In this document: positions 25,463-43,394 of the stretch, in pieces | How positions within the stretch are numbered: position 1 is the first letter of the stretch | Layout of the letters: every line of letters begins with the position of its first letter | Assembly: GCA_003156975.1 (NCBI GenBank) | Contig: PMIE01000043.1 | Location: 26,618 to 90,617 of the forward strand | Origin: Chloroflexota bacterium | GTDB taxonomy: Bacteria; Chloroflexota; Limnocylindria; Limnocylindrales; CSP1-4 | Direction: 5' to 3' | DNA: 64,000 nucleotides | Notes under the pieces: generated by a model | The model's database searches: none | Told to the model about the DNA's origin: nothing | The model's input: only the letters and a program-made list of their open reading frames with translations | Program-made: the position numbers and the translations under genes

Positions 25463-25739
25463 TCAGCGACATGACATCCATGGCAGTCGCGGGCAATTAG
25501 TCCTCATCCACGCCTCGAAGTCGGAGCGGTACGAAGGGGTACCGTGCTAGTACCTCCAGCGGGGTGCGTGCAGGCAACGACCACCTCATGATTCCGAGAG
25601 TCCCTTCATGTACCGTTTGGGACACTCGATACTGAGCTGATGTCTTGAACGGCCCAGCGCGTCGCCGGCCCGGGCGGGCGCAGGGCAGCTATCGCGGACT
25701 GATCGTCGGCGTCCTCTATTGGGACGTGGGACTGAGCCC

Positions 25740-26411
25740 ATGGAGATCAGCGTGAACGACTCGGCAGGGAATCACCCGACCCGTTTCCTTGCGGACCTGA
25801 CGCAGGCGATGCGTTCGACCGCTGAGGCGGCTCGTCTCTCGACAATCGAACAGTGCCGTCTCGACGCGCAGGCGTATGCCGAGCAGGTCAACGCTCGAAC
25901 CAAAGAGGAGTCCGAGCAATTCCGCAAGTCGGCCGATGCTGATGTCGCGACGATCCGCGAGCAGTCGAAAGCACGAATGGAGTTGATCCGGCAGGAAACC
26001 GAACGCCGTATCTCGCGCCGCCGCGAGCTCCTCGATCGCGATCTGGAGGAGTTCAACGCAGCCATAGGGGTCGAAGTCGAGAGCGTCCAGCATCGCGTCG
26101 AGGCATTCCAGAGCGAGGTTGCCGAGTTCTTCGAGCGGCTCCTTCAGGGCGGCGCGGATCCGACCGTCTTCGCGACTATGGCGTCTCAGATACCAGATCC
26201 GCCTTCCTTCGACGAACTCGACCCGAATACGCTGGCGAGCGATCTGCGGGCCCGGCGGCAGCAGGCCGAGCAGGAAGCCAGGGCTACTGCCTCGGGGACC
26301 TCACCGGCTGCGGCCTCGACAGGCGAAACGAAGGAGGCTCTCCCGGACCATTGGTGGCTGGATTCGCCAGCCAAGCTGGCGACAAGAGCCCACTCTGAAG
26401 GGCCTCAGTAA
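25740..26411 (+). CDS. coiled-coil protein, paralog A of a tandem pair
   Basis: MEISVNDSAGNHPTRFLADLTQAMRSTAEAARL... has heptad-rich charged helices through ~residue 130, then an acidic/Pro tail. It shares the N-terminal ~150 aa with paralog B. Confidence 0.65.
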   Translation: MEISVNDSAGNHPTRFLADLTQAMRSTAEAARLSTIEQCRLDAQAYAEQVNARTKEESEQFRKSADADVATIREQSKARMELIRQETERRISRRRELLDRDLEEFNAAIGVEVESVQHRVEAFQSEVAEFFERLLQGGADPTVFATMASQIPDPPSFDELDPNTLASDLRARRQQAEQEARATASGTSPAAASTGETKEALPDHWWLDSPAKLATRAHSEGPQ

Positions 26412-26754: not shown

Positions 26755-27648
26755 GTGGAGATGAGCGTGAACGAGACGGCCGCGCGTCATCCGAACCGGT
26801 TCCTGGCGGACCTCACGCAGGCCATGCGTTCGACCGCCGAGACGGCGCGGCAAGCGACGATCGATCAGTGCCAGGCGGATGCCAAGGCATATACCGAGAA
26901 GCTGCACGCGCGGACTGACGACGAAGCAGCCTCCCTCCGCAAAGCCGCCGAAGCCGATGTCAGCGCAATTCGCGACTGGTCCAAGGCCGAGATGGAGCGC
27001 ATCCGCGTCGAGACCGAACAGCGAATCTCGCGTCGCCGCGAGCTTCTGGAGCAGGAGCTGCAGGAGTACAACTCTGCCATCGAACTCGAGATCGAGCGCG
27101 TCCAGAGCCGCGTCTCGGCCTTCGAAGGAGAAGTCGCCAACTTCTTCGAGCAGCTCAGCCAGGAGGCCGACCCCACGGTCTTCGCCAGCATGGCCGCTCA
27201 GATGCCCGACTCTCCATCCTTCGAAGAAGCGGAGCGCGGAAGCCTCGCACCGGACCTGCGCGCCCGCCGCGAACAGATCATGCGGGCAAGCCCAGAGGCG
27301 AGTGCCAGCCCGCAGACGGGCCCCGGAGCGGAGGACGCCGCCCCGGCGTCAAGCCAAGCCGCAGTCGCCAAGGCGGCCGCAGTCGAGTCCACTCAGGTAG
27401 TGGTCGTCGGACTCGTAAGCGTCGCCAGCATTGCCACCTTCAAGCGCCAGCTCGGCCGTCTGCCCGGCGTGAAGAACGTCGGCGTATCGTCCGGACCAGA
27501 CGGCGAGTTCATCTTCACCGTCGGACACGGCTCGGATACTTCGCTGAGCCAGATCATCCCAACTCTGCCTGCGTTCCAAGCCCGCGTCGTGAGCGAGCGA
27601 GATGGCGTCCTCAACGTCTCCGCACACGATCCGGAGGCGGAAGGCTAG
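26755..27648 (+). CDS. coiled-coil protein, paralog B, with an extra C-terminal alpha/beta domain
   Basis: A GTG at 26755 (or the ATG at 26761) gives (M)EMSVNETAARHPNRFLADLTQAMRSTAETARQ... The C-terminal VVVVGLVSVASIATFKRQLGRLPGVKNVGVSSGPDGEFIFTVGHGSD is a compact domain absent from paralog A. Confidence 0.65.
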   Translation: MEMSVNETAARHPNRFLADLTQAMRSTAETARQATIDQCQADAKAYTEKLHARTDDEAASLRKAAEADVSAIRDWSKAEMERIRVETEQRISRRRELLEQELQEYNSAIELEIERVQSRVSAFEGEVANFFEQLSQEADPTVFASMAAQMPDSPSFEEAERGSLAPDLRARREQIMRASPEASASPQTGPGAEDAAPASSQAAVAKAAAVESTQVVVVGLVSVASIATFKRQLGRLPGVKNVGVSSGPDGEFIFTVGHGSDTSLSQIIPTLPAFQARVVSERDGVLNVSAHDPEAEG

Positions 27649-27690: not shown

Positions 27691-28977
27691 GTGGCTCGGT
27701 CAGCTGTAGCAATCGCTCTTCCGCCAGCCGAGTTCGGCGCGGTCAGCGCACAGCTTCTTGAGGCTGGCTACGAGCCGATCGAAGTCAAGACGGCCGATGA
27801 CCTGGAGGCGCTGCTCAACAGGCGCCGAGATATCGGCGTGGCAATTCTCGACGGCGAGAACGACTTCGACCGGACCCTCGAGATGTACGCGTTGCTTCAC
27901 GACGAGGATCGCAACATTCCGGCCCTGATGGTGGTCGCGGCCCGCGCCCTTGATCGTATGAGCCTCGCCGGGAGAGCCCGCGTCAACGACGAGTATTTCA
28001 CCCGGCCCTACTCCGCCGAGTCGCTGCGATGGCGGGTTGAGGCGATGCTCATACGGGCCGAGATTCCCGTTGAGGACATGAGCAGCGGGATCATCGAAAG
28101 CTCGGCAGAGGCCTCCGCGTCGGCGGCCTCGTCGGCAGCCGCGTCGGTCGCGTCCGGCGAAAGCCCCCGTGGCCAGATCGTCATCGTCTTCAATCCCAAG
28201 GGCGGCGTCGGCAAGACGACGATCGCCGTCAACGTGGCCGCTCTCCTGCAGGTCCGAAAGAACCAGCAGGTGCTACTCGTTGACTGCGACACGGTCACCG
28301 GCCACGTTGCCTCATCGCTCGGCATGGAGAACATTCGTACCGTCGCCGACGCCTGGACGGAAGACCTCAACACGGGCGTCGCCGAGTCCTTTGCCGAGAT
28401 CGCGACGCAGCACCAGAACGGTGTCTCCGTGCTGGTCATGGCCGAATCGCCGCTCCACACTGAGATCCTCGAGCCCAAGCGCGTCGCAGAAGCGATCACG
28501 ACTGCCTGCCACGTGTACGACTGGGTGATCGTAGACATGCACCCGGACTACGGGCCGCTCAATCAGGTCATTTTCGAGCGAGCCGACAAGATCATCGTCC
28601 CGGTCACGCCCGACGTGCCCGCCATTCGGGCCGCAGTCCAGCTGCGCGAGGTTGCCGTTGAGCTGGACATTCGCGAGCGCCTGGCCATGGTCGTCAACCG
28701 CGCCAACAGCGGCGTCTCGGTCGCCGATATGGAACGAACGGTTGGAATGCCGGCCCTGGCCGAGGTTCGCTCTGCGGGAATGCTGTTCGTTCGGGCCGCA
28801 AACGAAGGCCGCTCGGCGGTGGAGCGGTTCCCCAAGGAGAAGGTCATCGACGACATCGAGCTGCTGTGCACTCGGATGATGGCGACCCGCGACTCGGGCG
28901 AGGCCAAGTCCGGCCAGGGCTTCATGGGCATCTTCTCCGGGGGTCGGAACACGAACCCCTCGATGCGCGCCTCTTAG
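27691..28977 (+). CDS. pseudo-receiver plus ParA/MinD-family P-loop ATPase (TadZ/CpaE/Ssd-like orphan)
   Basis: The GTG at 27691 has AGGGAG 10 nt upstream. The N-terminal CheY-like fold lacks the acidic pocket. A deviant Walker A (VFNPKGGVGKTTIAVN) is present. The ATPase domain has MinD/ParA features (LLVDCD, DWVIVDMHPD). Confidence 0.8.
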   Translation: MARSAVAIALPPAEFGAVSAQLLEAGYEPIEVKTADDLEALLNRRRDIGVAILDGENDFDRTLEMYALLHDEDRNIPALMVVAARALDRMSLAGRARVNDEYFTRPYSAESLRWRVEAMLIRAEIPVEDMSSGIIESSAEASASAASSAAASVASGESPRGQIVIVFNPKGGVGKTTIAVNVAALLQVRKNQQVLLVDCDTVTGHVASSLGMENIRTVADAWTEDLNTGVAESFAEIATQHQNGVSVLVMAESPLHTEILEPKRVAEAITTACHVYDWVIVDMHPDYGPLNQVIFERADKIIVPVTPDVPAIRAAVQLREVAVELDIRERLAMVVNRANSGVSVADMERTVGMPALAEVRSAGMLFVRAANEGRSAVERFPKEKVIDDIELLCTRMMATRDSGEAKSGQGFMGIFSGGRNTNPSMRAS

Positions 28978-33708: not shown

Positions 33709-35427
33709 CTAGCTGGCGGCACCGAGCCAGCCCGGCAGCTCTTTGGCGAGGGTCGCAAGCGGCAGGGTGCCGTGGCCGAGGACGGCGTCGTGGAATGCGC
33801 TCAGCTTGAAGTCGGGCCCGAGACGCGCCGAGGTCTCGGTCCGGAGTCGCGTGATCTCGCGCTGCCCGATCTTGTAACAGAGGGCCTGTGCCGGCATGGC
33901 GATGTACCGATCGGTCTCGATGACCGACTCCGTGTTCGACTGGCCGGCCTCCAGCAACTGCTCGATGGACTGCTCGCGGGTCCAGCCCATGGCATGTATA
34001 CCCGTGTCGACGATCAGCCTGGCAGCGCGGTGAGCCTGGCCGTCGAGCATTCCGAACCGCTCCGCCTCGTTGAGGAAGAGGCCCATCTCGTCCGCAAGCC
34101 GTTCTGCGTACAGGCCCCAACCTTCGATGTAGGCCATTCCCGCCATGCGCGAGCCCATCCTCCGGAAGGCGTTGAGAGTTGGATGCTCGGTCTGGAGAGC
34201 GATCTGGAAGTGATGGCCGGGCACCGCCTCGTGGAAAGTCATGCTTGCCAGCCCGACGTAGCTTCGGCTCGGCAGGTCGTACGTGTTCACGTAGTAGACG
34301 CCCGGCCGGCTGCCATCGACCGGGGGCGCGTAGTAATACGCAGCGGGCGCGTCGGCTTCCTTGAACGGCTCCACCGGCCGGACTTCGCAGCCGGCCTTCG
34401 GCAGTGTCCCGAAGTACTTGGGCGACGCCGCGAAGGCGCGCTGGATCTGGCCGTTGGCGCGGTCGATCAGCGCCTCGATCGATTGCGGGATCATTGCTGG
34501 ATCGGCGCGGAGTGCGGCGCGGGCGACCTTGAGGTCGTCGCCAAGACCGAGGCCGCGGGCGATGACCCGCTGCTCGTCGTGGATCGAGGCCAGTTCCGCC
34601 AGCCCGATGCGATGCACTTCGCCGGCATCGAGGTTGAGCGAGGTCCACGCCCGAATCTGGGTCCGGTACAGCTCGTCTCCGTGCGGCGCCGAACTCAGCC
34701 CCGGGTCGTCGCGCGAGGCCTCGCGGTACTTGCCGAGCAGCGCGTCGAGGAAGCCGCGATCGGCCGGACGTACATATCGGGCGATCGCCGCGACGACCCT
34801 GGCGCGGTCCGAGGACTTCGGCAGCTTCAGCACCGAGATGATCGGCGACTCCTCGTCGGGAATGGCCAGCAGCCGCTCCATCTGGCTGATCACGCGCTCA
34901 GTTACGATTCGGGCCGCAGTCACTCCGCTCTCGAGGCCCTCACGCACCGTCTCGATGTTGGCCGCCATGAATCGCGGGTAGTCCGCCAGGCGAGCCATGA
35001 AGGCCTCGAACTGCTCCGGTGCCTCCGTCGGCTGGAAGGCCGCGAGAAGCGGCAGGATGGTCTGCGGGCCGTCCATCTGGTCGACGACCTTGAGCCGATC
35101 GAAGCGCTGGCCCTGCTGCTCAAGCTCGATGTCGCAGATGACTCGCATGATGTCGAGAGTGATGCGCTCTTCCGTGGGCAAGCTCGAGGTCGCGGACGCC
35201 TGAGCCTCGATAGCATCGGCTTCGGCGAGAGTGGCGCGATATAGCCGCGCCGCCCGCTCCCGGCCGCCGGGTCCCGGGTCGTCGAGCCGATCCATCCCCT
35301 GTTCGTAGCCGAGCAGGGTCGCGTTGATCGGCGACAGATCCAGAATGCCGCTCCAGAAGCGTTCCGAAAGTGCGTTCACCGCGTCGGCCGCGCTCGGGAC
35401 GTCGCCAACGGGAGTTGTTTCAGCCAC
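33709..35427 (-). CDS. DUF885 family protein (putative zinc-metallopeptidase-like)
   Basis: HEAVPGHHFQ is the HExxH-like motif. The start is placed at the GTG at 35427, with GGAGG 5 nt upstream. The longer ORF extension is rejected. Confidence 0.8.
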   Translation of the reverse strand: MAETTPVGDVPSAADAVNALSERFWSGILDLSPINATLLGYEQGMDRLDDPGPGGRERAARLYRATLAEADAIEAQASATSSLPTEERITLDIMRVICDIELEQQGQRFDRLKVVDQMDGPQTILPLLAAFQPTEAPEQFEAFMARLADYPRFMAANIETVREGLESGVTAARIVTERVISQMERLLAIPDEESPIISVLKLPKSSDRARVVAAIARYVRPADRGFLDALLGKYREASRDDPGLSSAPHGDELYRTQIRAWTSLNLDAGEVHRIGLAELASIHDEQRVIARGLGLGDDLKVARAALRADPAMIPQSIEALIDRANGQIQRAFAASPKYFGTLPKAGCEVRPVEPFKEADAPAAYYYAPPVDGSRPGVYYVNTYDLPSRSYVGLASMTFHEAVPGHHFQIALQTEHPTLNAFRRMGSRMAGMAYIEGWGLYAERLADEMGLFLNEAERFGMLDGQAHRAARLIVDTGIHAMGWTREQSIEQLLEAGQSNTESVIETDRYIAMPAQALCYKIGQREITRLRTETSARLGPDFKLSAFHDAVLGHGTLPLATLAKELPGWLGAAS

Positions 35428-35510: not shown

Positions 35511-38432
35511 TCAAGAGCCGAAAAGCGGCAGCTGCTCGCCGACCGTATCCGCGATCGCATCGAGACCGAGATACGGCTCCAGGTCCGCCAGCGTCGCCTC
35601 GGGCCGGGCCGCGAACTCGACCAGGTGGTTCCACTTGATGAAATGCCAATTGCGCTCTTCGATCGCCTTGCGCAACAGCGGCGAGCGAGCCAGCTTGACC
35701 TTCACCAGATCGGCCCTCTCCGGCGGGATGACCAGGAACCGAACGACCTTGTCCTCTTCCGGGTAGCGCGCGTGGCGGGTCAGAACGGGTTCACCGAGCA
35801 TTGCCGTCCATTCGACCTCGAACAGAAAGCTCGCCTTGCGGCGGACGTACCAGGCGCAGTCGACTCGCTCGAGCTCGCCATCGGGAGCCCAGGCGATGAG
35901 CGGCAGATGGATTTCGTGTTCCGCCGTATCCAGCCGATCCGCGAGCGGGCGGCCACCGACTCTGCGATCCTGCTGGCGCTTGCCGATCCAGACGCTCATC
36001 CCCAGGTTGTGGCCGACATCGGCCAGCAAGGCGATGATTCGGTCGTGGTCCGCGGTGCGGCCTTCCAACTGCTCGAAGCCCGCCACCGACTCTGGGGTGC
36101 TCCCTGGAGCAAGGTAGCTGGCGAAACAAGCCTCCACGAGATCGCGGTCCGGGGCTTCGCGGCCTTTGAACATGGCCATGACTCGCTCGAACGCGGCCCG
36201 CTCTGTCAGATGACCCGCCGACGACAGGAGCGAAAAGACCCCCCACTCCACCCTGTCGGCCAGCGGTTGCGCCGCGACGCCGCGATCCTCGTCCGAGGCC
36301 AACCAGTACTGGCCGGGCTCTATCTGGCGGATGCCGCGATTGTTGGGCCGGTCCAACTCCTCATGGATGATCTGGATCAGTTGCGCCACCGGATCCGTGC
36401 GTGAGGCTTCATCGGGCATCCCCAGAATCGTCCGCACCGCGGCACGGGCCGAGTCTCCCGTGGAGACTCCGGTGGTGGCGCGGCTCCTCGCCACCTCCTG
36501 GACCTTGCCGTCGGCGGTCGTGTCGCTCGATGACGCGTCGACCCAGGCCGACCACCCATCGTCGGCGTGGTCGGGCCGCAGAACCCGCGCCAGACGGGCG
36601 AGCTGCCCCGAAGCGTCGAGCCCAATCAGGACATCGCCGAGGATGTGATCGAAGTTCGCCGGCTCTCCTCTGGCCTTCAGCAGCTCCACAGCAGTATCCG
36701 TAATCGCCTGGGCGGCGGCGCCTACCCGGAATGGACCGTCGTCGAGTCTCTCGGGCGCCGCGAAGGCTCCCCGGCCCGGAATGGTTCCGGGGTCGCCGGC
36801 CCCGCCCTCCACCGGCGGCAGCGGACGATTGGCCCGCGTCCGCGGCCCGGGCGCCATGACGCCGGTTCCCGGCACGAAGGCGACGATGCCGGGACTGTCG
36901 TCCCCGCCCCGATGAAGACGGGCATCGATCAGACGACAGCCCGCCGCCGCTCCGCCGAGAGCCGCCGCGACCAGAGTGGCGGGCTGGGCATCGTCGAGCA
37001 GCAGAACGGCCCGACCTGTCTGCGCGAGAGCCGGCGTGGCGATGGCCAGTGACCTGCCCACGGCTCGGGCCAGATCCACCGCTTCCTCTTCCGGGGTCGG
37101 CTTCGACGTGGGCTTGAACAACTCGTCGTGCGGCAGAAGGGCCACGGCGGCCGCCCCAAAAACCCAGCCCGTTCCGTGATACAGCGCCGCGAGCCGTTCC
37201 GGCGTCCAGCGAAGAGGCGCCTGCCCCAGAACGAGCCTCACGCGCGATTGCGACCCGGAGTGGGCCATCCGCTCGCCGTGGAGCCCGAGACGGCGCAGCG
37301 AGCCTGGTGTCGCCTCTCCGACGGTCACATTGGCCGTGGTTCCCTCCAGAGTTGAGATATCGACGCCGGGGCGGGCCAGAGCGGACCGTGGCGTCCCCGA
37401 TTCGAGACTGAGGCAGAAGGACTTGACCAGATTCAACCCGGCCTCGAAGGCCAGCCACGGGTTGAGTTCGTGCCACTCGCGCGCGGTCGGCACCTTGAGG
37501 ACGCCGTTGGCTATGCGAACCGGCGCAGGCTTGCCCTGAGTAACGTTCAGCCGGCTCGCCAGCAGGACGGCGTGGAGGAAGGCGAGGCGGAGCGCCGCGG
37601 TGAGGGCTCCGTCGCGATCCTCCGCATCGATACGAGTGAGGATCGCATGCAACCCCAGGAGCTGGCGCGGCGTGTGGAGGTCTACGAGCTGATCCACAAG
37701 AGGGTGCGTTGGCCGTGGCGCCGGAAACCGCCGCCGCATCGCCTCGCGAACCTCACCGCTCGAAGGGACCGACTCCGCAAGCCGGACGTCGCCGAGGGTG
37801 AAGACCGCCGACCGAAGCTCGGCGCCGCCTTCCTTGGCCTGGCAGTACGGGCACCTGTACTCGCGGGCAATCGGGCGGAGAAACTCCTCCGGGCCCGCCT
37901 GCAACTCGTGAACGGGGCCCGACAAGGCAGGTGTGCGGGATGCGGAGGCCTTGGCGCGGCTGCGCCCCGGGGACTTGCCCGCGGCGATGCCCTCGGCCCG
38001 CACGGGCACGGCCACAGGCTGCCAGACCATTGACTCCAGGATCACCGGGCGGCTGCACGTCGGGCAGACGCTCGCGTAGAGCGCCTCGATGGTCCTCCGA
38101 ACCGTAGAACCGGAGAACGGCGAGTTCGAGATAGCCGTCATGGCGGACTCGACCTGGCGCACGTTAGGCGGACGAAGAACTACATCGGCGAGCAGCCTCG
38201 TCAGTGGCCAGATTTCATAGTCCGCGGCCCGGCGTTGCTCCGCGATCGCGGCCCGAGCAACCCAGCCGCCACGGCCGTTCAGGTCCAGGACCACTTCGCC
38301 CGGCTTGGTTCCCGCTTCAATTGCCGCGACACATTCCGATGCCGGGGCGGGTGGGCAGAGGCGCTCGAAAAATGGCAGCGTGGGAACGCTGGCGAGCACA
38401 GGCTCGGGGTTTGTGGCGGCACTCCCGACCAT
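35511..38432 (-). CDS. large (973 aa) protein with a SAM-MTase motif-I-like segment, two Zn-ribbon CxxC pairs and a C-terminal nuclease-like region (DUF1156/COG1743-like?)
   Basis: EVVLDLNGRGGWVARAA at residues 46-62 resembles methyltransferase motif I. CPTC (123-126) and CPYC (194-197) form a candidate zinc ribbon. The C-terminal ...VDCAWYV...FLFEVEWT resembles a PD-(D/E)xK core. Composition is protein-like throughout. Confidence 0.55.
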   Translation of the reverse strand: MVGSAATNPEPVLASVPTLPFFERLCPPAPASECVAAIEAGTKPGEVVLDLNGRGGWVARAAIAEQRRAADYEIWPLTRLLADVVLRPPNVRQVESAMTAISNSPFSGSTVRRTIEALYASVCPTCSRPVILESMVWQPVAVPVRAEGIAAGKSPGRSRAKASASRTPALSGPVHELQAGPEEFLRPIAREYRCPYCQAKEGGAELRSAVFTLGDVRLAESVPSSGEVREAMRRRFPAPRPTHPLVDQLVDLHTPRQLLGLHAILTRIDAEDRDGALTAALRLAFLHAVLLASRLNVTQGKPAPVRIANGVLKVPTAREWHELNPWLAFEAGLNLVKSFCLSLESGTPRSALARPGVDISTLEGTTANVTVGEATPGSLRRLGLHGERMAHSGSQSRVRLVLGQAPLRWTPERLAALYHGTGWVFGAAAVALLPHDELFKPTSKPTPEEEAVDLARAVGRSLAIATPALAQTGRAVLLLDDAQPATLVAAALGGAAAGCRLIDARLHRGGDDSPGIVAFVPGTGVMAPGPRTRANRPLPPVEGGAGDPGTIPGRGAFAAPERLDDGPFRVGAAAQAITDTAVELLKARGEPANFDHILGDVLIGLDASGQLARLARVLRPDHADDGWSAWVDASSSDTTADGKVQEVARSRATTGVSTGDSARAAVRTILGMPDEASRTDPVAQLIQIIHEELDRPNNRGIRQIEPGQYWLASDEDRGVAAQPLADRVEWGVFSLLSSAGHLTERAAFERVMAMFKGREAPDRDLVEACFASYLAPGSTPESVAGFEQLEGRTADHDRIIALLADVGHNLGMSVWIGKRQQDRRVGGRPLADRLDTAEHEIHLPLIAWAPDGELERVDCAWYVRRKASFLFEVEWTAMLGEPVLTRHARYPEEDKVVRFLVIPPERADLVKVKLARSPLLRKAIEERNWHFIKWNHLVEFAARPEATLADLEPYLGLDAIADTVGEQLPLFGS

Positions 38433-38606: not shown

Positions 38607-39167
38607 ATGGGGCGACATGTGCAAGCAGTAACCGCGGACACGGCGCGTGAGACTCCGACGCTCGATGCGTTCGAAGCTCTCAGCGACCGCTGTCTCGACG
38701 ATTCGTACCGGTTGGCGGCCGTGGTCTTGCGCGACCAGGCCGAAGCGCAGGATGTCGTCCACGACGCGGTCCTGCTGGGATGGCGCAAGTTCGGTTCGTT
38801 GCGCGATCCGGCACGCTTCGACGCCTGGTTCGGGCGGATCGTCCTGAACCTATGTCGCGACCGGCTCCGGACCAGGCGGCGTGGGCAGGTCCGCGAGGCG
38901 GCGCTCGTCGCCGAAATGGATATGGGTGGGCACGACGACTTTGGTCGCGTGATGGAGCGCGATGCAATCGCCGCCGCCTTTCCCACGCTCGATCCAGACC
39001 TGCAGTTGGTCGTGGCCCTGCGGTTCTACAAAGACCTCCAACTCGAGGCGATCGCCGACCTTCTGGGCATCCCACTCGGGACCGTGAAATCGCGTCTCCA
39101 CACCGGACTGAAGCGCCTGCGTGCCGAGCTCGAACGAGCCGGCTGGCGAGGGGAGAACGAACGATGA
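38607..39167 (+). CDS. RNA polymerase sigma-70 factor, ECF subfamily
   Basis: Region 2 (DVVHDAVLLGWRKF) and region 4 (LQLEAIADLLGIPLGTVKSRLHTGLKRLR) are present. Length is ~187 aa. The 5' extension of ORF 38235.. is rejected. Confidence 0.8.
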   Translation: MGRHVQAVTADTARETPTLDAFEALSDRCLDDSYRLAAVVLRDQAEAQDVVHDAVLLGWRKFGSLRDPARFDAWFGRIVLNLCRDRLRTRRRGQVREAALVAEMDMGGHDDFGRVMERDAIAAAFPTLDPDLQLVVALRFYKDLQLEAIADLLGIPLGTVKSRLHTGLKRLRAELERAGWRGENER

Positions 39168-40660
39168 AGTACCAGGCCGGCAGCTTTGCCGCGGCGCGAA
39201 AAGGCCACTCCGATCGACCGGACCGAATGGAAGCTGAACTCACCAGATGGCTCGACGGACTCGAGCCGACCGGAACTCCCATCGCCCTGCGCCTCCGGAC
39301 TTTCGCCGATCTCCGGGAAGAGGCCGCGCGACCGCGGCGGCGATTCGCCCGGCTGGGACCGGCGCTCTCGTCGATTGGCTCGCTCGGGGCGATCGTCATC
39401 GGGGCGAGCCTGATCATGCTGGTCGCGGTCGTTGGAGCGACGGTAGACCATGCCCACGCAGTCGCAGGCGGGATGGCTCCGCTAACGGGCAGCGGGTCCG
39501 TTCCGCAGACGCCGGGGGACTTCTCGGACATCGGCTACGGCCCGGACCCGGTGGCACTATCGATTCTCTTCGCAGCGACGGCGCTGGCCGCCTGGGGCGC
39601 GCTCCAGACACGAGTCCGGCGATTCGTGGCGCGCGTGACGTACGGCAAGGACGAAGCTCCTGCCGGCGAGCCTCTCCCTTTCAAGCGGCAGCTTCGCCAC
39701 ATGCCGCGCGCGGCGTTGGCTACGGGAGCGATCGGGGCGTTGTTCGTGGCTTGGGAAATCTGGATGGTTCTCACCTATCAGGGCGCAGGGCTGATCCAGC
39801 CGAACTGGATTGTCTTCTTTCAGTGGATCGGGCTGATCACGTTCATCCCCTACTGCTCCATCGTGGCGCTGCGCTATCGCCTGGCAGATCGATCGAGCAG
39901 GCTGCTGCTTACGGCGACGACCGCGATGCTGGCCGCCTACGTCCTCGTTGCGGCTCTCCTCACGCTGGATCTGATGACGATCTACAGCCAGTGGCTGAAC
40001 GAGCTCGCTGAGCTGTCCACCAGTCTCATGGCGGTCTCCACCGTCGCTCTGGCCGCCGGCCTGGCAAGTCGCCACGGAGGAATACCGCGGCCTCCACTGT
40101 GGATCGCGTCAACCATCGTGGGTGGCTTCTTCTTGCTCGTTGCGGCCGGGTACTTCATCGTCGGGATGTGGCCGCACACGGCGGAGGGCTGGATCACAGA
40201 CGCCACCGGGATCCTGTCCAGTTGGCTCGGCACGGTCGGCTGGGCTGCGATCACATGGATTGGCCTCTCCGCCTGGCGGCAGAGAAGCTCATGGGGCTGG
40301 CGGCTGCTTCTGTTCGTTGGGGTTCTCGCCCTGCTGGACCGCGTCCCCGGGTACGTGCTCGGGATCTACTCCTCGAACTCAATTGCCACCTCGCCTGGTG
40401 GAGACGGGAGCCTCCTGGAAACGATCCGAATGCAGTACTTCTGGTGGAAGAGCACGGGCATGACCCTGGAGATGTTCGGGGTTCTCGTCGTCCTCGTGAG
40501 CGGCCTTCGGATCGCGCGGCCGAGTCTCGGGGACCCCGCTTCTCCGTTGCAGGACGACGAACTTGGGCCGATCCAGTCACCGGCCGAGGATGTCGCGAGC
40601 GCGAATCGGATGGACGGCGCGAGCAACGCGGCGGCGGACGGCATATCGGCGGACGCATAA
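39164..40660 (+). CDS. putative anti-sigma factor / polytopic membrane protein
   Basis: The ATG overlaps the sigma-factor stop as ATGA. A ~60-aa cytoplasmic N-domain is followed by ≥10 TM helices. Confidence 0.6.
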   Translation: MKYQAGSFAAARKGHSDRPDRMEAELTRWLDGLEPTGTPIALRLRTFADLREEAARPRRRFARLGPALSSIGSLGAIVIGASLIMLVAVVGATVDHAHAVAGGMAPLTGSGSVPQTPGDFSDIGYGPDPVALSILFAATALAAWGALQTRVRRFVARVTYGKDEAPAGEPLPFKRQLRHMPRAALATGAIGALFVAWEIWMVLTYQGAGLIQPNWIVFFQWIGLITFIPYCSIVALRYRLADRSSRLLLTATTAMLAAYVLVAALLTLDLMTIYSQWLNELAELSTSLMAVSTVALAAGLASRHGGIPRPPLWIASTIVGGFFLLVAAGYFIVGMWPHTAEGWITDATGILSSWLGTVGWAAITWIGLSAWRQRSSWGWRLLLFVGVLALLDRVPGYVLGIYSSNSIATSPGGDGSLLETIRMQYFWWKSTGMTLEMFGVLVVLVSGLRIARPSLGDPASPLQDDELGPIQSPAEDVASANRMDGASNAAADGISADA

Positions 40661-40745: not shown

Positions 40746-41684
40746 CTACGCCTCGTCGAGGTCGTCGGTCTCCTCTTCGAAGGCTTCCTCGCCGGTGATC
40801 TCGGCGGGCAGCACCCGATCGAGGTCCTGGATGCCCTCATCTTCTTCGTCGTCCTCGAGATCCTCTTCCATGAGCTCTTCCTCGCGGAGAAGCGTGCCCT
40901 TGGTATATGGGCGCAGGTCCGAGGAACGAGCGGCCGTTGGGAAGCTGACCTTGCCGTAGTTGCGGGGGTCCTGGAAGATCTCGCGGATGACGATCCGGAC
41001 GTCGCGATCGCCGAGCGACGTGATTCCGGCCGAGTACTTGTTGCCGTCGGCGAGCAGCTTGAGCAGGCGCGCGGCGACGCGCGGCTCGACGATGCCGATG
41101 AGCTGTCCGTTGGCGTGGGCGAAGAGCCGGTTGCCCTCGGCCATCAGCTCAACGGAGTCGCCCGGATTGACGTGAGCAAGGAGGCGAGGAGAGGCGAGGT
41201 CCGTCAGCATCGCGAAGCCGGTCTTGCCGGTCTCCTCCACGAAGATGGCAACGGGCGCCTTTTCGGCCTTCTCCGGCGGGGCGGTCTTGTCGCCGGCTTC
41301 GCTCATGAGAACGCGCAGCCGCTCGATGTTCCGCTCGGCGATTCTGTTCGTGGGATCCAGGGCGAGAGCAACCTGGTAGTGCTCCCGCGCTTCGCCCAGC
41401 TCACCCATCTCCCAAAGGGATTTGGCGAGGCGATTCTCGGCCTCGGCTTCTGGGCCGAACTCAAGGATCTTGCGGTTGGTCTCGGCCGCCTCCGCCCAGC
41501 GACCTGCGGCGCCGTGGCCGATCGCCTGTTCGGCCAGCTGTCGCTTGATCCGAACGGTGTTGCCGCCGGTGGTCTTTTCGATCTCGGGGAAGGCCAAGGA
41601 GATGTGTCCTTTCGTTGGCTGCGCCAGGCCGATTGCTGGAGCGGCGAGATGGCGGTGGTTGCCATCTCGCGGAAGGCATACCAA
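40746..41684 (-). CDS. TPR-repeat protein with a highly acidic C-terminal tail
   Basis: TPR-like helices appear in WAEAAETNRKILEFGPEA...GELGEAREHYQVALALDPTN. The C-terminal EELMEEDLEDDEEDEG...EEAFEEETDDLDEA is an acidic tail. The real start is more likely the TTG at 41597, which has AAGGA 9 nt upstream. Confidence 0.6.
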   Translation of the reverse strand: MVCLPRDGNHRHLAAPAIGLAQPTKGHISLAFPEIEKTTGGNTVRIKRQLAEQAIGHGAAGRWAEAAETNRKILEFGPEAEAENRLAKSLWEMGELGEAREHYQVALALDPTNRIAERNIERLRVLMSEAGDKTAPPEKAEKAPVAIFVEETGKTGFAMLTDLASPRLLAHVNPGDSVELMAEGNRLFAHANGQLIGIVEPRVAARLLKLLADGNKYSAGITSLGDRDVRIVIREIFQDPRNYGKVSFPTAARSSDLRPYTKGTLLREEELMEEDLEDDEEDEGIQDLDRVLPAEITGEEAFEEETDDLDEA

Positions 41685-41767: not shown

Positions 41768-42634
41768 TCAGCCCCTCCGAACGAAGACCCGCAGCTCGCC
41801 GGCCCACAGCTGGAGGTCCAGGACAACTTCCTCCGTTCTGATCAGATATCCCGTCAGTTCGAGCAGTTCGTTGTATTGCGGGATGGCCTGCTGGACGGTC
41901 TGATTGGCCAGACCGCCGTACGGCGGTTGTTCCGTGACGTCGTAGGCGCACCAGCGACCGTATCGGTCGACATAGGAGCGGTCCGACTCGCTCAGCGGTT
42001 CCGGCAGAGGATCCACCCAGGCCGCTCCATATGCCTCGAGCGTCCAGTCCGCGGCCGCATCGCACATCAAGACGAGCCCGTCGGCGAAGGTCAATTCGAT
42101 CGGGCCGTCGCTCGTGTTCACCTCGCCCTGGAACACGTAGTGGAGCCGCCGGATGCGCGTGATCTCCCGGCCCACCAGAGCTGGCGGGACGGATAGCCGG
42201 TTGGCGCGATTCCAGCCTTCGTGGCGCGGCAACCGCGCTCCCGGGGTCATGACCAGCGTCCGGAAGAGATGGTCCAGCGTGGCGGCGCAATCGCCGGTCA
42301 ATCCTGTGTGCACCTCGGAACGCCCGACCATCGTGCTGCTCGGCGATGACAACCAATGAAACCTTTCGGCCTTGGCGAGCGCCGCGATCGGGCCGGCGGA
42401 CGAGTCACCGCGGGCGACTCGCTCTATCCCCGCAAGCTGAGCGGCGATCTCATCCGCGTCGCAGTCCGGAGCGAGCGCCGTGAGACGGGTCACGTCCAGG
42501 CCCGTCCGGGCATCCAGGAAGCGCCGCTCCCTGCAGAACAGGACGACGCCGGCATTGATGAACTCGGCCCGTTCGACGCGTGGAACGGCCCGCAGGACTG
42601 TATACGTGAAGGGACTACGCGCCTGTGCGGACAC
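41768..42634 (-). CDS. DUF3037 domain protein with a C-terminal extension (partner of the HipA-like kinase)
   Basis: The GTG start has AGGAGG 6 nt upstream. The N-terminal FTYTVLRAVPRVERAEFINAGVVLF matches the DUF3037 consensus (YvPD..RgEfvNvGVil). Its 5' end overlaps the upstream kinase gene by 20 nt. Confidence 0.7.
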   Translation of the reverse strand: MSAQARSPFTYTVLRAVPRVERAEFINAGVVLFCRERRFLDARTGLDVTRLTALAPDCDADEIAAQLAGIERVARGDSSAGPIAALAKAERFHWLSSPSSTMVGRSEVHTGLTGDCAATLDHLFRTLVMTPGARLPRHEGWNRANRLSVPPALVGREITRIRRLHYVFQGEVNTSDGPIELTFADGLVLMCDAAADWTLEAYGAAWVDPLPEPLSESDRSYVDRYGRWCAYDVTEQPPYGGLANQTVQQAIPQYNELLELTGYLIRTEEVVLDLQLWAGELRVFVRRG

Positions 42635-43394
42635 GTTCCGCCTCCTGCGCGAGTGCTCGATGGACGGCCAGTCGACGGTTCAGGTAGTCGAGATATGCGG
42701 CCCTGTGGGCGGCTGGGTCCGGCAGGCCATCCTGCGGCACCAGCCAATCGTCGGGCACGGCCTCGACTATCGAGCGGAAGAGTTCCGCGGAGAGCAACGG
42801 GGCGAGCCGGTCGTCCGCTTCGACGATCGAGCCGGCGAGCGGCAGCAGGACGTGGCTCTTGATTGCGGCCAGCGGCTTGCGAGCGTGGGCCGGGACGTCC
42901 TTCCAGGTGTGGTGGATGTACAGGGCCGAGCCGTGGTCGATCAGCCACAAGCGGCGATGCCAGACCAGCAAGTTCGTGTTGCGGGCGTCGCGATCCACGT
43001 TGGTGACGAAGGAGTCGAACCAGACGACGGCTGCGCAGACATCGGCGGGAGGCCTGAAGCCGGCGGCCGGATCAAGGCCCAGAGAACCGGGCAGGAAGTC
43101 CAAACCAACGTTCACGCCGCTGCTGCGCTGGAGCAGTTCCCGGATCTCCTGGTCGGGTTCGGCGGCCGCCAGGCGCGGGTCGAAGTTCACGAGCACGATC
43201 TCCGGGACGAGCAGCCCAAGTGCCCGGGCGATCTCTCCGGCAATCAGCTCGGCGACGAGGGCCTTCTCGCCGTGACCTGCGCCACGGAACTTGGCCACGT
43301 ACAAGCCGTCGTCGTCAGCCTCAACCACCGCCGGCAGCGAGCCACCCTCGCGCAGCGGGGTCACGTAGCGTGTAGCGGTGACGTGACGGATCAC
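42615..43394 (-). CDS. HipA-like Ser/Thr kinase domain protein (PI3/4-kinase-like fold)
   Basis: FVTNVDRDARNTNLLV...WLIDHGSALY matches the HipA catalytic-loop consensus (GNTDRH.KN...D). LYVAKFRGAGHGEKALVAE is a Gly-rich loop. Length is 259 aa. Confidence 0.65.
   Translation of the reverse strand: MIRHVTATRYVTPLREGGSLPAVVEADDDGLYVAKFRGAGHGEKALVAELIAGEIARALGLLVPEIVLVNFDPRLAAAEPDQEIRELLQRSSGVNVGLDFLPGSLGLDPAAGFRPPADVCAAVVWFDSFVTNVDRDARNTNLLVWHRRLWLIDHGSALYIHHTWKDVPAHARKPLAAIKSHVLLPLAGSIVEADDRLAPLLSAELFRSIVEAVPDDWLVPQDGLPDPAAHRAAYLDYLNRRLAVHRALAQEAERVRTGA

Follow-up and report, generated by a model that had tools for sequence, protein, structure and literature searches.

Methylases with a recognition domain nested in their catalytic core have been described from bacteriophage exclusion (BREX) systems. 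In BREX type-3 PglXI and in the BREX-related DUF1156 methylases, a target recognition domain (TRD) of about 250 residues is inserted between core strands 2 and 3, carries a four-cysteine zinc finger at its apex and is followed by C-terminal helix-turn-helix (HTH)-like domains, and according to the same study homologs of this insert are not found outside BREX systems (bioRxiv 10.1101/2025.10.09.681413). A second point of reference is R.NmeDI, a characterized restriction endonuclease (REase) of 351 residues (PMC2095814). Here we describe a gene from a 64,000-nucleotide stretch of a Chloroflexota bacterium (assembly GCA_003156975.1, contig PMIE01000043.1, positions 26,618 to 90,617; hereafter the window). 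The open reading frame (ORF) under study, which we call X, occupies positions 35511..38432 on the minus strand and encodes 973 amino acids from an ATG start. We propose, with modest confidence, that X is a domesticated DNA endonuclease derived from a restriction-modification (RM) system, in which a dead methylase serves as the DNA-reading module. It is best read neither as a self-contained RM system nor as a member of the DUF1156 family.

X is a genuine gene and not a chance ORF of the high-GC window (66–70% GC, where long spurious ORFs are frequent), because a protein search returned 690 homologs, more than 100 of them full length at E = 0, an exhaustive profile search reached 1448 representative clusters, and the start methionine and N-terminus are conserved in the homolog alignment. 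Positions in alignment A1 and in the first AlphaFold2 model, both built without Met1, equal the true position minus 1. The sequence of X taken singly reveals little of its ancestry. It has no Pfam match even at E ≤ 1 (the library searched did not contain PF27126) and nothing meaningful in NCBIfam, no PDB sequence was retrieved, and neither the PADLOC PglXI model nor PF01555 (N6_N4_Mtase; gathering threshold 26.7 bits) matches it. Two leads point to a methylase: a weak PADLOC match to MTase_II over residues 38–104 (2.7e-6), and an alignment of residues 23–77 of the family profile (52 sequences) with the motif X-I-II region of M.RsrI (E = 0.25). A first-pass annotation, made from the sequence alone, had reported the 973-residue ORF with a SAM-methyltransferase-like motif near the N-terminus, two CxxC pairs and a nuclease-like region at the C-terminus. 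All the motifs that it quoted are located in X, EVVLDLNGRGGWVARAA at residues 46–62 and VDCAWYV...FLFEVEWT at residues 857–876, and the homologies described below support its assignments at both ends of the protein.

The exhaustive profile search also recovered a sister clade of proteins of 760–890 residues with 25–30% identity to X. Their N-termini match many PADLOC MTase_II models, with E-values down to 1.5e-16, and PF01555 is matched by 15 of 40 distant members, always by their residues ~20–80 and solely over model positions 160–215 of 221, at 30–33.6 bits in the sister clade. The PADLOC PglXI model is matched by sister-clade members exactly over the insert (their residues ~153–297, E ~1e-10). 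The nearest solved relatives of X-family members are M.RsrI, CcrM, MboIIA and N4-cytosine methylases. A more distant relative, P0297 (1293 residues), is a canonical tandem methylase with two methylase modules and an XRE HTH and without a nuclease, which hhalign aligns with the X family at a probability of 91.6 and E = 8e-7. Its modules follow the order YHTKVPP...DPFCGSGMTGVAA...LSDLSP; CPTC...CTWC; FTRRNL/YTPRNL; E-W/V-N-V; VQVFQRSATDL...DMVFMDPPFGSNIFY; LKPGG. P0297 lies in a typical defense island, with an HNH/MTaX1 gene, Mrr_cat, GmrSD_N, a NACHT gene and a UvrD/PD-(D/E)xK helicase as its neighbors.

These relatives allow the anatomy of X to be read. Residue equivalences were taken from a MAFFT alignment of X, the sister clade and both P0297 modules, together with the secondary structure of an AlphaFold2 model of X that was computed with the family alignment as input (predicted local distance difference test, pLDDT, 83; predicted template modeling score 0.81; confidence is low at residues 143–170, a zinc-ribbon loop with pLDDT < 50, and 635–676, a linker). 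Because these equivalences place the methylase core at residues ~20–75 and ~367–520, the methylase fold is present in X yet split, and the single uninterrupted Rossmann fold at residues 40–250 for which the first-pass annotation had looked is not borne out. The first part of the core (38208..38375, minus) comprises a motif X remnant, strand β1 with motif I (residues 46–52), and strand β2 (residues 67–72) with the motif II acid E73. By comparison of sequences (the MTase_II and M.RsrI matches, PF01555 in relatives and the P0297 alignment, to which the model adds), it is homologous to the C-terminal motif X-I-II segment, the S-adenosylmethionine (SAM)-binding segment, of β-class N6/N4 DNA methylases. 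The second part (36873..37334, minus) runs through β3 (NVTVGE), a helix, β4 (RLVLGQAPL), further helices, β5, a helix and a β6–β7 hairpin, and is placed by its secondary structure and by alignment with VQVFQRSATDL..DMVFMDPPF..LKPGG of P0297.

Between core strands 2 and 3 lies a nested TRD-like insert (residues ~76–366; 37335..38207, minus), recognized from the alignments, the model and the PglXI matches in the sister clade. It is made up of a four-cysteine zinc ribbon, a helical bundle that bears HTPRQL (residues 253–258) and a β-meander that ends in W-x-E-x-N-P-W-x-x-F-E (residues 320–330); the last two motifs are conserved and are common to the insert of X and the active methylase P0297. The two CxxC pairs, CPTC at residues 123–126 and CPYC at residues 194–197, 71 residues apart, turn out to form the zinc ribbon of this insert (C123/C126...C194/C197; 37842..38066, minus). 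The four cysteines are invariant in the alignment, the model places β-hairpins at residues 128–140 and 182–191, and the loop at residues ~142–180 is variable and of low confidence.

The two motifs on which methyl transfer depends are degenerate. At motif I (38262..38285, minus) the alignments give D50-L-N-G-R-G-G-W57 in X, with Arg in place of the first Gly of GxG, against D-P-F-C-G-S-G-M-T in P0297. DLxGRGGW is dominant across 82 Limnocylindria orthologs and the sister clade reads DPFC-R/Q/H-x-x; the first Gly is thus replaced by Arg, Gln or His across the family, P0133 apart. At motif IV (residues 398–408; 37209..37241, minus) X has R-L-V-L-G-Q-A-P-L-R-W where P0297 has DMVFMDPPFGS. G-Q-A-P-L contains neither D/N/S nor an aromatic residue, against D-P-P-F (DPPFGSNIFY) in P0297; the 82 orthologs have LGQ-[PA]-P-[VLIM]-R, and the sister clade has T/S/G/A, then S/A/R/E/Q/V, then P-P, then R/Y/S/A/G/P. 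Neither the polar catalytic residue nor the base-stacking aromatic of motif IV is kept in the family. The NPPY/DPPY-type motif that the first-pass annotation had suggested seeking after alignment did not materialize: a regex scan found no canonical (D/N/S)PP(Y/F/W) among more than 140 retrieved full-length proteins with a C-terminal FxVEWT. Because motifs I and IV are degenerate, methyl transfer appears to have been lost in X. Of the nuclease-bearing members retrieved, P0133 (943 residues) alone has kept GxG intact (DPWAGTGW); it has SPPP at motif IV and may represent an intermediate stage of methylase decay. Two other placements of motif IV were rejected. N324-P-W326 belongs to the insert, because it is also present in the active P0297 ahead of the true DPPF, and the hhalign pairing of NVTVGE with DMVFMD of P0297 was judged a ragged-end misalignment, because MAFFT sets RLVLGQAPL against DMVFMDPPF and YHGTGWVFG against LWESWLG.

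The C-terminal domain (residues ~783–945; 35598..36086, minus) is probably PD-(D/E)xK restriction-endonuclease-like and appears to resemble NmeDI_C. Precomputed PF27126 (NmeDI_C) matches exist for many X homologs, with E ≤ 1e-5 for P0167 and P0274 and a weak match for P0119; none is recorded for P0001, which is 95% identical to X. PADLOC REase_II PDLC03534, whose model has 351 positions, the length of R.NmeDI, matches the C-terminal region in five X-family members. Residues 676–973, modeled separately (pLDDT 85), fold into a winged-helix-like module followed by an α-β-β-β-α-β core. The top Foldseek matches of this model in the PDB are EcoT38I (E = 0.017), VC1899, AF2093, MspJI, McrC (in the McrBC complex), BsaWI and YaeQ; each is weak, none reaches E ≤ 1e-3, and they are mixed with winged-helix-containing O-methyltransferases. 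Most of these matches are restriction endonucleases or, as we take VC1899, AF2093 and YaeQ to be, proteins with PD-(D/E)xK-type folds. The alignments indicate a putative active site, D858...E872-V-E874 (35811..35861, minus), whose acids lie on adjacent strands in the models and are invariant in the 52 aligned homologs and in the 82 Limnocylindria orthologs, all 82 of which have FEVEWTA. The spacing of D...ExE is reminiscent of the form that the motif takes in BamHI. The invariance of the triad argues for catalysis, and the domain is predicted to be an active metal-dependent nuclease. Searched as a profile, the C-terminal domain retrieved in its top 120 only in-family proteins and fragments and no new architectures. 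Several C-terminal-only family proteins of ~300–460 residues (P0331, P0332, P0357, P0400, P0406 and others) lie on contigs of 0.2–2.2 Mb; these may be X genes split by assembly frameshift errors and not standalone nucleases.

X is a vertically inherited, fixed chromosomal backbone gene of Limnocylindria and not a mobile defense gene. When one genome was scanned for each GTDB species, relatives were found in at least 519 genomes, of which the best 80 are all metagenome-assembled genomes of Chloroflexota / Candidatus Limnocylindria, one contig apart. That contig (DASPHN010000101.1) bears the label Candidatus Saccharimonadales; it has X within the complete Limnocylindria gene order (PolX, TPR, X, DUF885) and is probably a mis-binned Chloroflexota contig. 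Searching 83 loci by tblastn revealed a syntenic block of ~20 kb that consists of PolX, a tetratricopeptide repeat (TPR) gene, X, DUF885, IclR, MscS and ParA. The TPR gene is immediately upstream of X, almost always on its strand, in 78 loci and PolX is upstream in 70, DUF885 follows on the same strand in 77, usually 35–300 bp away, IclR is downstream in 65, and the ParA-type gene stands at the edge of the block in 25. Identity of X to the window protein (42–74%) co-varies with that of every neighbor (Spearman ρ 0.63–0.85), the pattern expected of vertical descent. In the reverse test, 80 metagenome loci were fetched through the TPR neighbor; X is present in all 27 whose downstream flank extends for 6 kb or more, and none of the 27 shows an empty site. 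In other Chloroflexota, including Anaerolineae, sister-clade genes stand alone among metabolic genes (five loci). X-family genes have metabolic genes around them, unlike P0297 in its defense island. Vertical backbone inheritance, together with these standalone relatives, argues for a housekeeping or at least fixed role over that of a mobile RM system. The first-pass annotation had raised the prospect of universally conserved housekeeping orthologs with a function already assigned; conservation across the lineage is borne out, and no function is assigned to the orthologs.

We hypothesize that a fused methylase-REase of Type II or BREX-related ancestry became fixed in an early Chloroflexota lineage, where the chemistry of methyl transfer would have been lost and the nuclease kept. 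The dead methylase core, the zinc-ribbon TRD and the HTH and winged-helix modules would together form a DNA-reading head that recognizes a fixed sequence, a flipped base or a methylation state, and the PD-(D/E)xK domain would cleave or nick the DNA nearby. Because the motif I Asp and the motif II acid are retained, the methylase module may still bind SAM, S-adenosylhomocysteine or another adenosyl ligand. Cognate methylation would not be supplied by the same chain, and self-damage would therefore have to be avoided in another way, either through the choice of substrate (a modification, a lesion or a structure) or through regulation. The options for its function are a Type IV-like restriction and a housekeeping role in repair or maintenance; fixed synteny, universality in the lineage and co-divergence favor a role that is housekeeping or at any rate fixed. 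X would clearly exemplify the domestication of an RM enzyme into a stable chromosome, one of its catalytic halves having been turned off, and a family found in at least 519 species genomes without usable Pfam or NCBIfam annotation gains a concrete anatomy and a testable hypothesis.

Several points weigh against this proposal. The loss of methyl transfer is read from the motifs, and DNA as the substrate of X is assumed from its ancestry. D50 is retained, as is the acid at the end of β2, which is E73 in X and Asp in both P0297 and the sister clade. The degenerate motif IV, too, has a conserved form in Limnocylindria, GQ[PA]P[VLIM]R. A non-canonical activity of the methylase module, or the binding of a ligand by it, is therefore possible. 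In the nuclease, sister-clade proteins have E, Q, D, T or V at the first acid of ExE and E or D at the second, but Q in a few members, for example P0200, P0267 and P0275. The core status of X applies to the relatives that were reachable by the scans.

One elaboration of the domesticated-endonuclease proposal, which we regard as speculative and rather improbable, is that the dead methylase acts as a base-flipping reader of the methylation or damage state at a fixed motif and licenses the nuclease, in a housekeeping role specific to Chloroflexota such as MutH-like strand discrimination or lesion-specific nicking. If so, X would mark the first time that a methylase fold was co-opted to serve a repair or restriction nuclease as its sensor, and the first occurrence of a PglXI-type nested TRD beyond BREX-type systems. 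A dead methylase that read the state of DNA would constitute a new coupling of epigenetic or lesion sensing to cleavage.

The alternative that survives best, although it is also improbable, is that X is a modification-dependent, Type IV-like nuclease, in which the dead pocket would recognize a flipped base of foreign DNA that is already methylated or otherwise modified, whereupon the nuclease would cut. With the methylase dead and the nuclease intact, such an enzyme would need no cognate methylase to avoid self-cleavage, the ancestry of X lies in RM systems, and MspJI and McrC are among the top C-terminal Foldseek matches. These structural matches are weak, however; X shows neither a defense island nor a patchy distribution and co-diverges with its housekeeping neighbors, and a full-text search of the literature gave no obvious precedent for methylase-fold readers in restriction enzymes, Type IV enzymes among them.

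Less probable still is an active single-chain RM enzyme of Type IIC/IIG-like organization that would methylate host DNA through a non-canonical motif IV (QPP-aliphatic) and cleave unmethylated invaders. It is in keeping with the presence of methylase and REase modules in one chain, with the retention of D50 and E73, with the conservation of the degenerate motifs within Limnocylindria and with an ancestry in Type II RM components. Against it, no member has the catalytic D/N/S or the aromatic of motif IV, positions that vary freely in the sister clade, and motif I has Arg, Gln or His in place of its first Gly. The recognition insert is conserved and not diversifying: its column identity is 0.6–0.8 with many invariant residues, and it has none of the hypervariability of the specificity domains of diversifying RM systems. 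A fixed locus, vertical descent and 27 of 27 loci without an empty site are likewise unlike RM genes. The suggestion of the first-pass annotation that X is a single-polypeptide RM or defense enzyme thus fares poorly, given motifs that are degenerate family-wide and a gene that belongs to a syntenic, vertically inherited backbone.

We give about the same low credence to the view that X acts on RNA, taking part in the processing of rRNA or tRNA, or that it binds nucleic acids in a purely structural capacity, neither of its enzymatic folds being active. A lineage-wide, conserved, single-copy gene among housekeeping genes would suit such a role, and in two of the five sister loci an HD-domain gene lies directly upstream on the same strand (L084, 7208-7828; L085, 6723-7718), one of them encoding an oligonucleotide/oligosaccharide-binding (OB) fold plus HD. 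A Foldseek search of the PDB with the whole model of X returned nothing significant; the top 50 are mostly weak methylase matches, and rRNA and tRNA methylases occur among them, albeit at E ≥ 0.095. The relatives at the level of sequence are all DNA methylases and Type II REases, and the invariant D...ExE triad speaks for catalysis. The least probable alternative, that X and the DUF885 metallopeptidase-like protein downstream form a two-gene module, draws on their same-strand adjacency, seen also in most of the long TPR-fetched loci, and on one database ORF (P0262) that joins the C-terminus of X to DUF885, but the adjacency is not specific to the pair because the whole ~20-kb region is syntenic, DUF885 is absent from the vicinity of all five sister-clade genes, and P0262, which matches just profile positions 738–882 ahead of DUF885, is probably a frameshifted read-through in a high-GC contig; a functional link between the two is thus weak.

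The remaining modules of X connect the methylase core to the nuclease. A helical, HTH-like module with a conserved RGEP motif (residues ~569–620; 36573..36728, minus) is delimited by the model and the alignments, and its assignment as an HTH is made tentatively, by analogy with the C-terminal HTH triad of PglXI. It is followed by a poorly conserved linker of low model confidence (residues ~621–678; 36399..36572, minus) and, ahead of the nuclease, by a module that the models suggest is winged-helix-like (residues ~679–782; 36087..36398, minus).

As the first-pass annotation had stated, a DUF885 gene follows X, an extracytoplasmic function (ECF) sigma factor gene diverges from it, and X is solitary with respect to DUF499 and DUF3780 partners, none of which occurs in the window or in the syntenic loci. 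No BREX genes lie near X in the syntenic loci or in the sister-clade loci that were checked. The DUF885 gene (33709..35427, minus; Pfam 4.2e-148), a conserved downstream neighbor in Limnocylindria only, likely begins with GTG at 35427, preceded by GGAGG, which leaves an 83-bp gap to X. Other neighbors of X are TPR, sigma, Ank, aminotransferase and IclR genes. The ECF sigma gene (38607-39167, plus; ATG at 38607) and the downstream gene for a multi-pass membrane protein (38780-40660, plus), a putative anti-sigma factor with no Pfam match, lie between the TPR gene and X; the pair occurs in only 5 of the 83 genome loci and ~9 of the 80 metagenome loci, and the divergent sigma gene is therefore not a conserved partner of X. 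The TPR protein (40746-41684, minus), which has an acidic C-terminal tail, is the product of the most conserved gene of the neighborhood, with 67–91% identity where X has 42–74%. Between PolX and the TPR gene, a HipA_2-like kinase gene (41768-42634, minus; Pfam 1.3e-18) overlaps a DUF3037 gene (42615-43394, minus; 4.4e-38). This pair, which may be a toxin-like or defense-like module, is found in only 12–13 of the 83 related loci and is therefore a variable insertion in the conserved backbone. Elsewhere in the window, tandem paralogous ORFs (25719-26411 and 26755-27648, both plus) that encode coiled-coil-like proteins with near-identical N-termini (...NHPTRFLADLTQAMRSTAE...) lie directly upstream of a receiver-like/ParA-MinD-type ATPase gene (27691-28977), the ParA-type gene at the edge of the syntenic block.

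Compared with known systems, X is made of familiar components: the N6/N4 methylase with a nested zinc-finger TRD and the NmeDI-like nuclease are both known, as is the idea of a methylase-nuclease fusion. We did not find described the combination of a decayed PglXI-type methylase with an apparently intact nuclease, outside a BREX or RM cassette, in a vertically inherited core gene of a large uncultured lineage. Like the PglXI (BrxXI) and DUF1156 (COG1743) methylases, X has a core split by a four-cysteine TRD insert, here of ~290 residues, and followed by HTH-like modules. Unlike them, it lacks BREX (BrxC, PglZ, BrxHII), DUF499 and DUF3780 partners nearby, its motifs I and IV are degenerate, and it has an additional predicted C-terminal PD-(D/E)xK nuclease and is vertically inherited. 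DUF1156 (PF06634) was found neither in X (Pfam, E ≤ 1) nor in 40 family members (E ≤ 0.1) nor in P0297. The resemblance to COG1743/DUF1156 proteins that the first-pass annotation had perceived thus holds for the architecture, a core with an embedded four-cysteine TRD, and not for membership, since both the domain and the cassette are missing.

With the tandem zinc-ribbon-TRD Type II methylases of the P0297 type (MTase_II PDLC03312), X shares the same order of elements, from X-I-II through CxxC...CxxC, the TPRxL helix, ExNxW and the motif IV strand to the LKPGG region, whereas P0297 keeps DPFCGSGMT and DPPFGSNIFY, has two modules and an XRE HTH, lacks a nuclease and belongs to a defense island. 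With REases of the R.NmeDI type (NmeDI_C, PDLC03534), X appears to share the PD-(D/E)xK domain of its C-terminal ~160 residues and nothing else; it is about three times larger than R.NmeDI and, unlike that enzyme, has no cognate C5 methylase. Fused RM enzymes of Type IIC/IIG (the Eco57I, MmeI and BcgI class) combine an active γ-class methylase with a usually N-terminal nuclease and have a patchy, mobile distribution. X likewise has methylase and nuclease in one polypeptide, but its core is split and, as its motifs suggest, dead, its nuclease is C-terminal and its gene is fixed in the lineage. MutH and Vsr, housekeeping repair nucleases derived from REases, are precedents for domesticated restriction-endonuclease folds; they are likened to X by analogy and have no methylase-derived reader. 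An architecture lately ascribed to BREX type-3 and BREX-related systems alone, the methylase with a nested zinc-finger TRD, occurs outside BREX-type defense systems as well.

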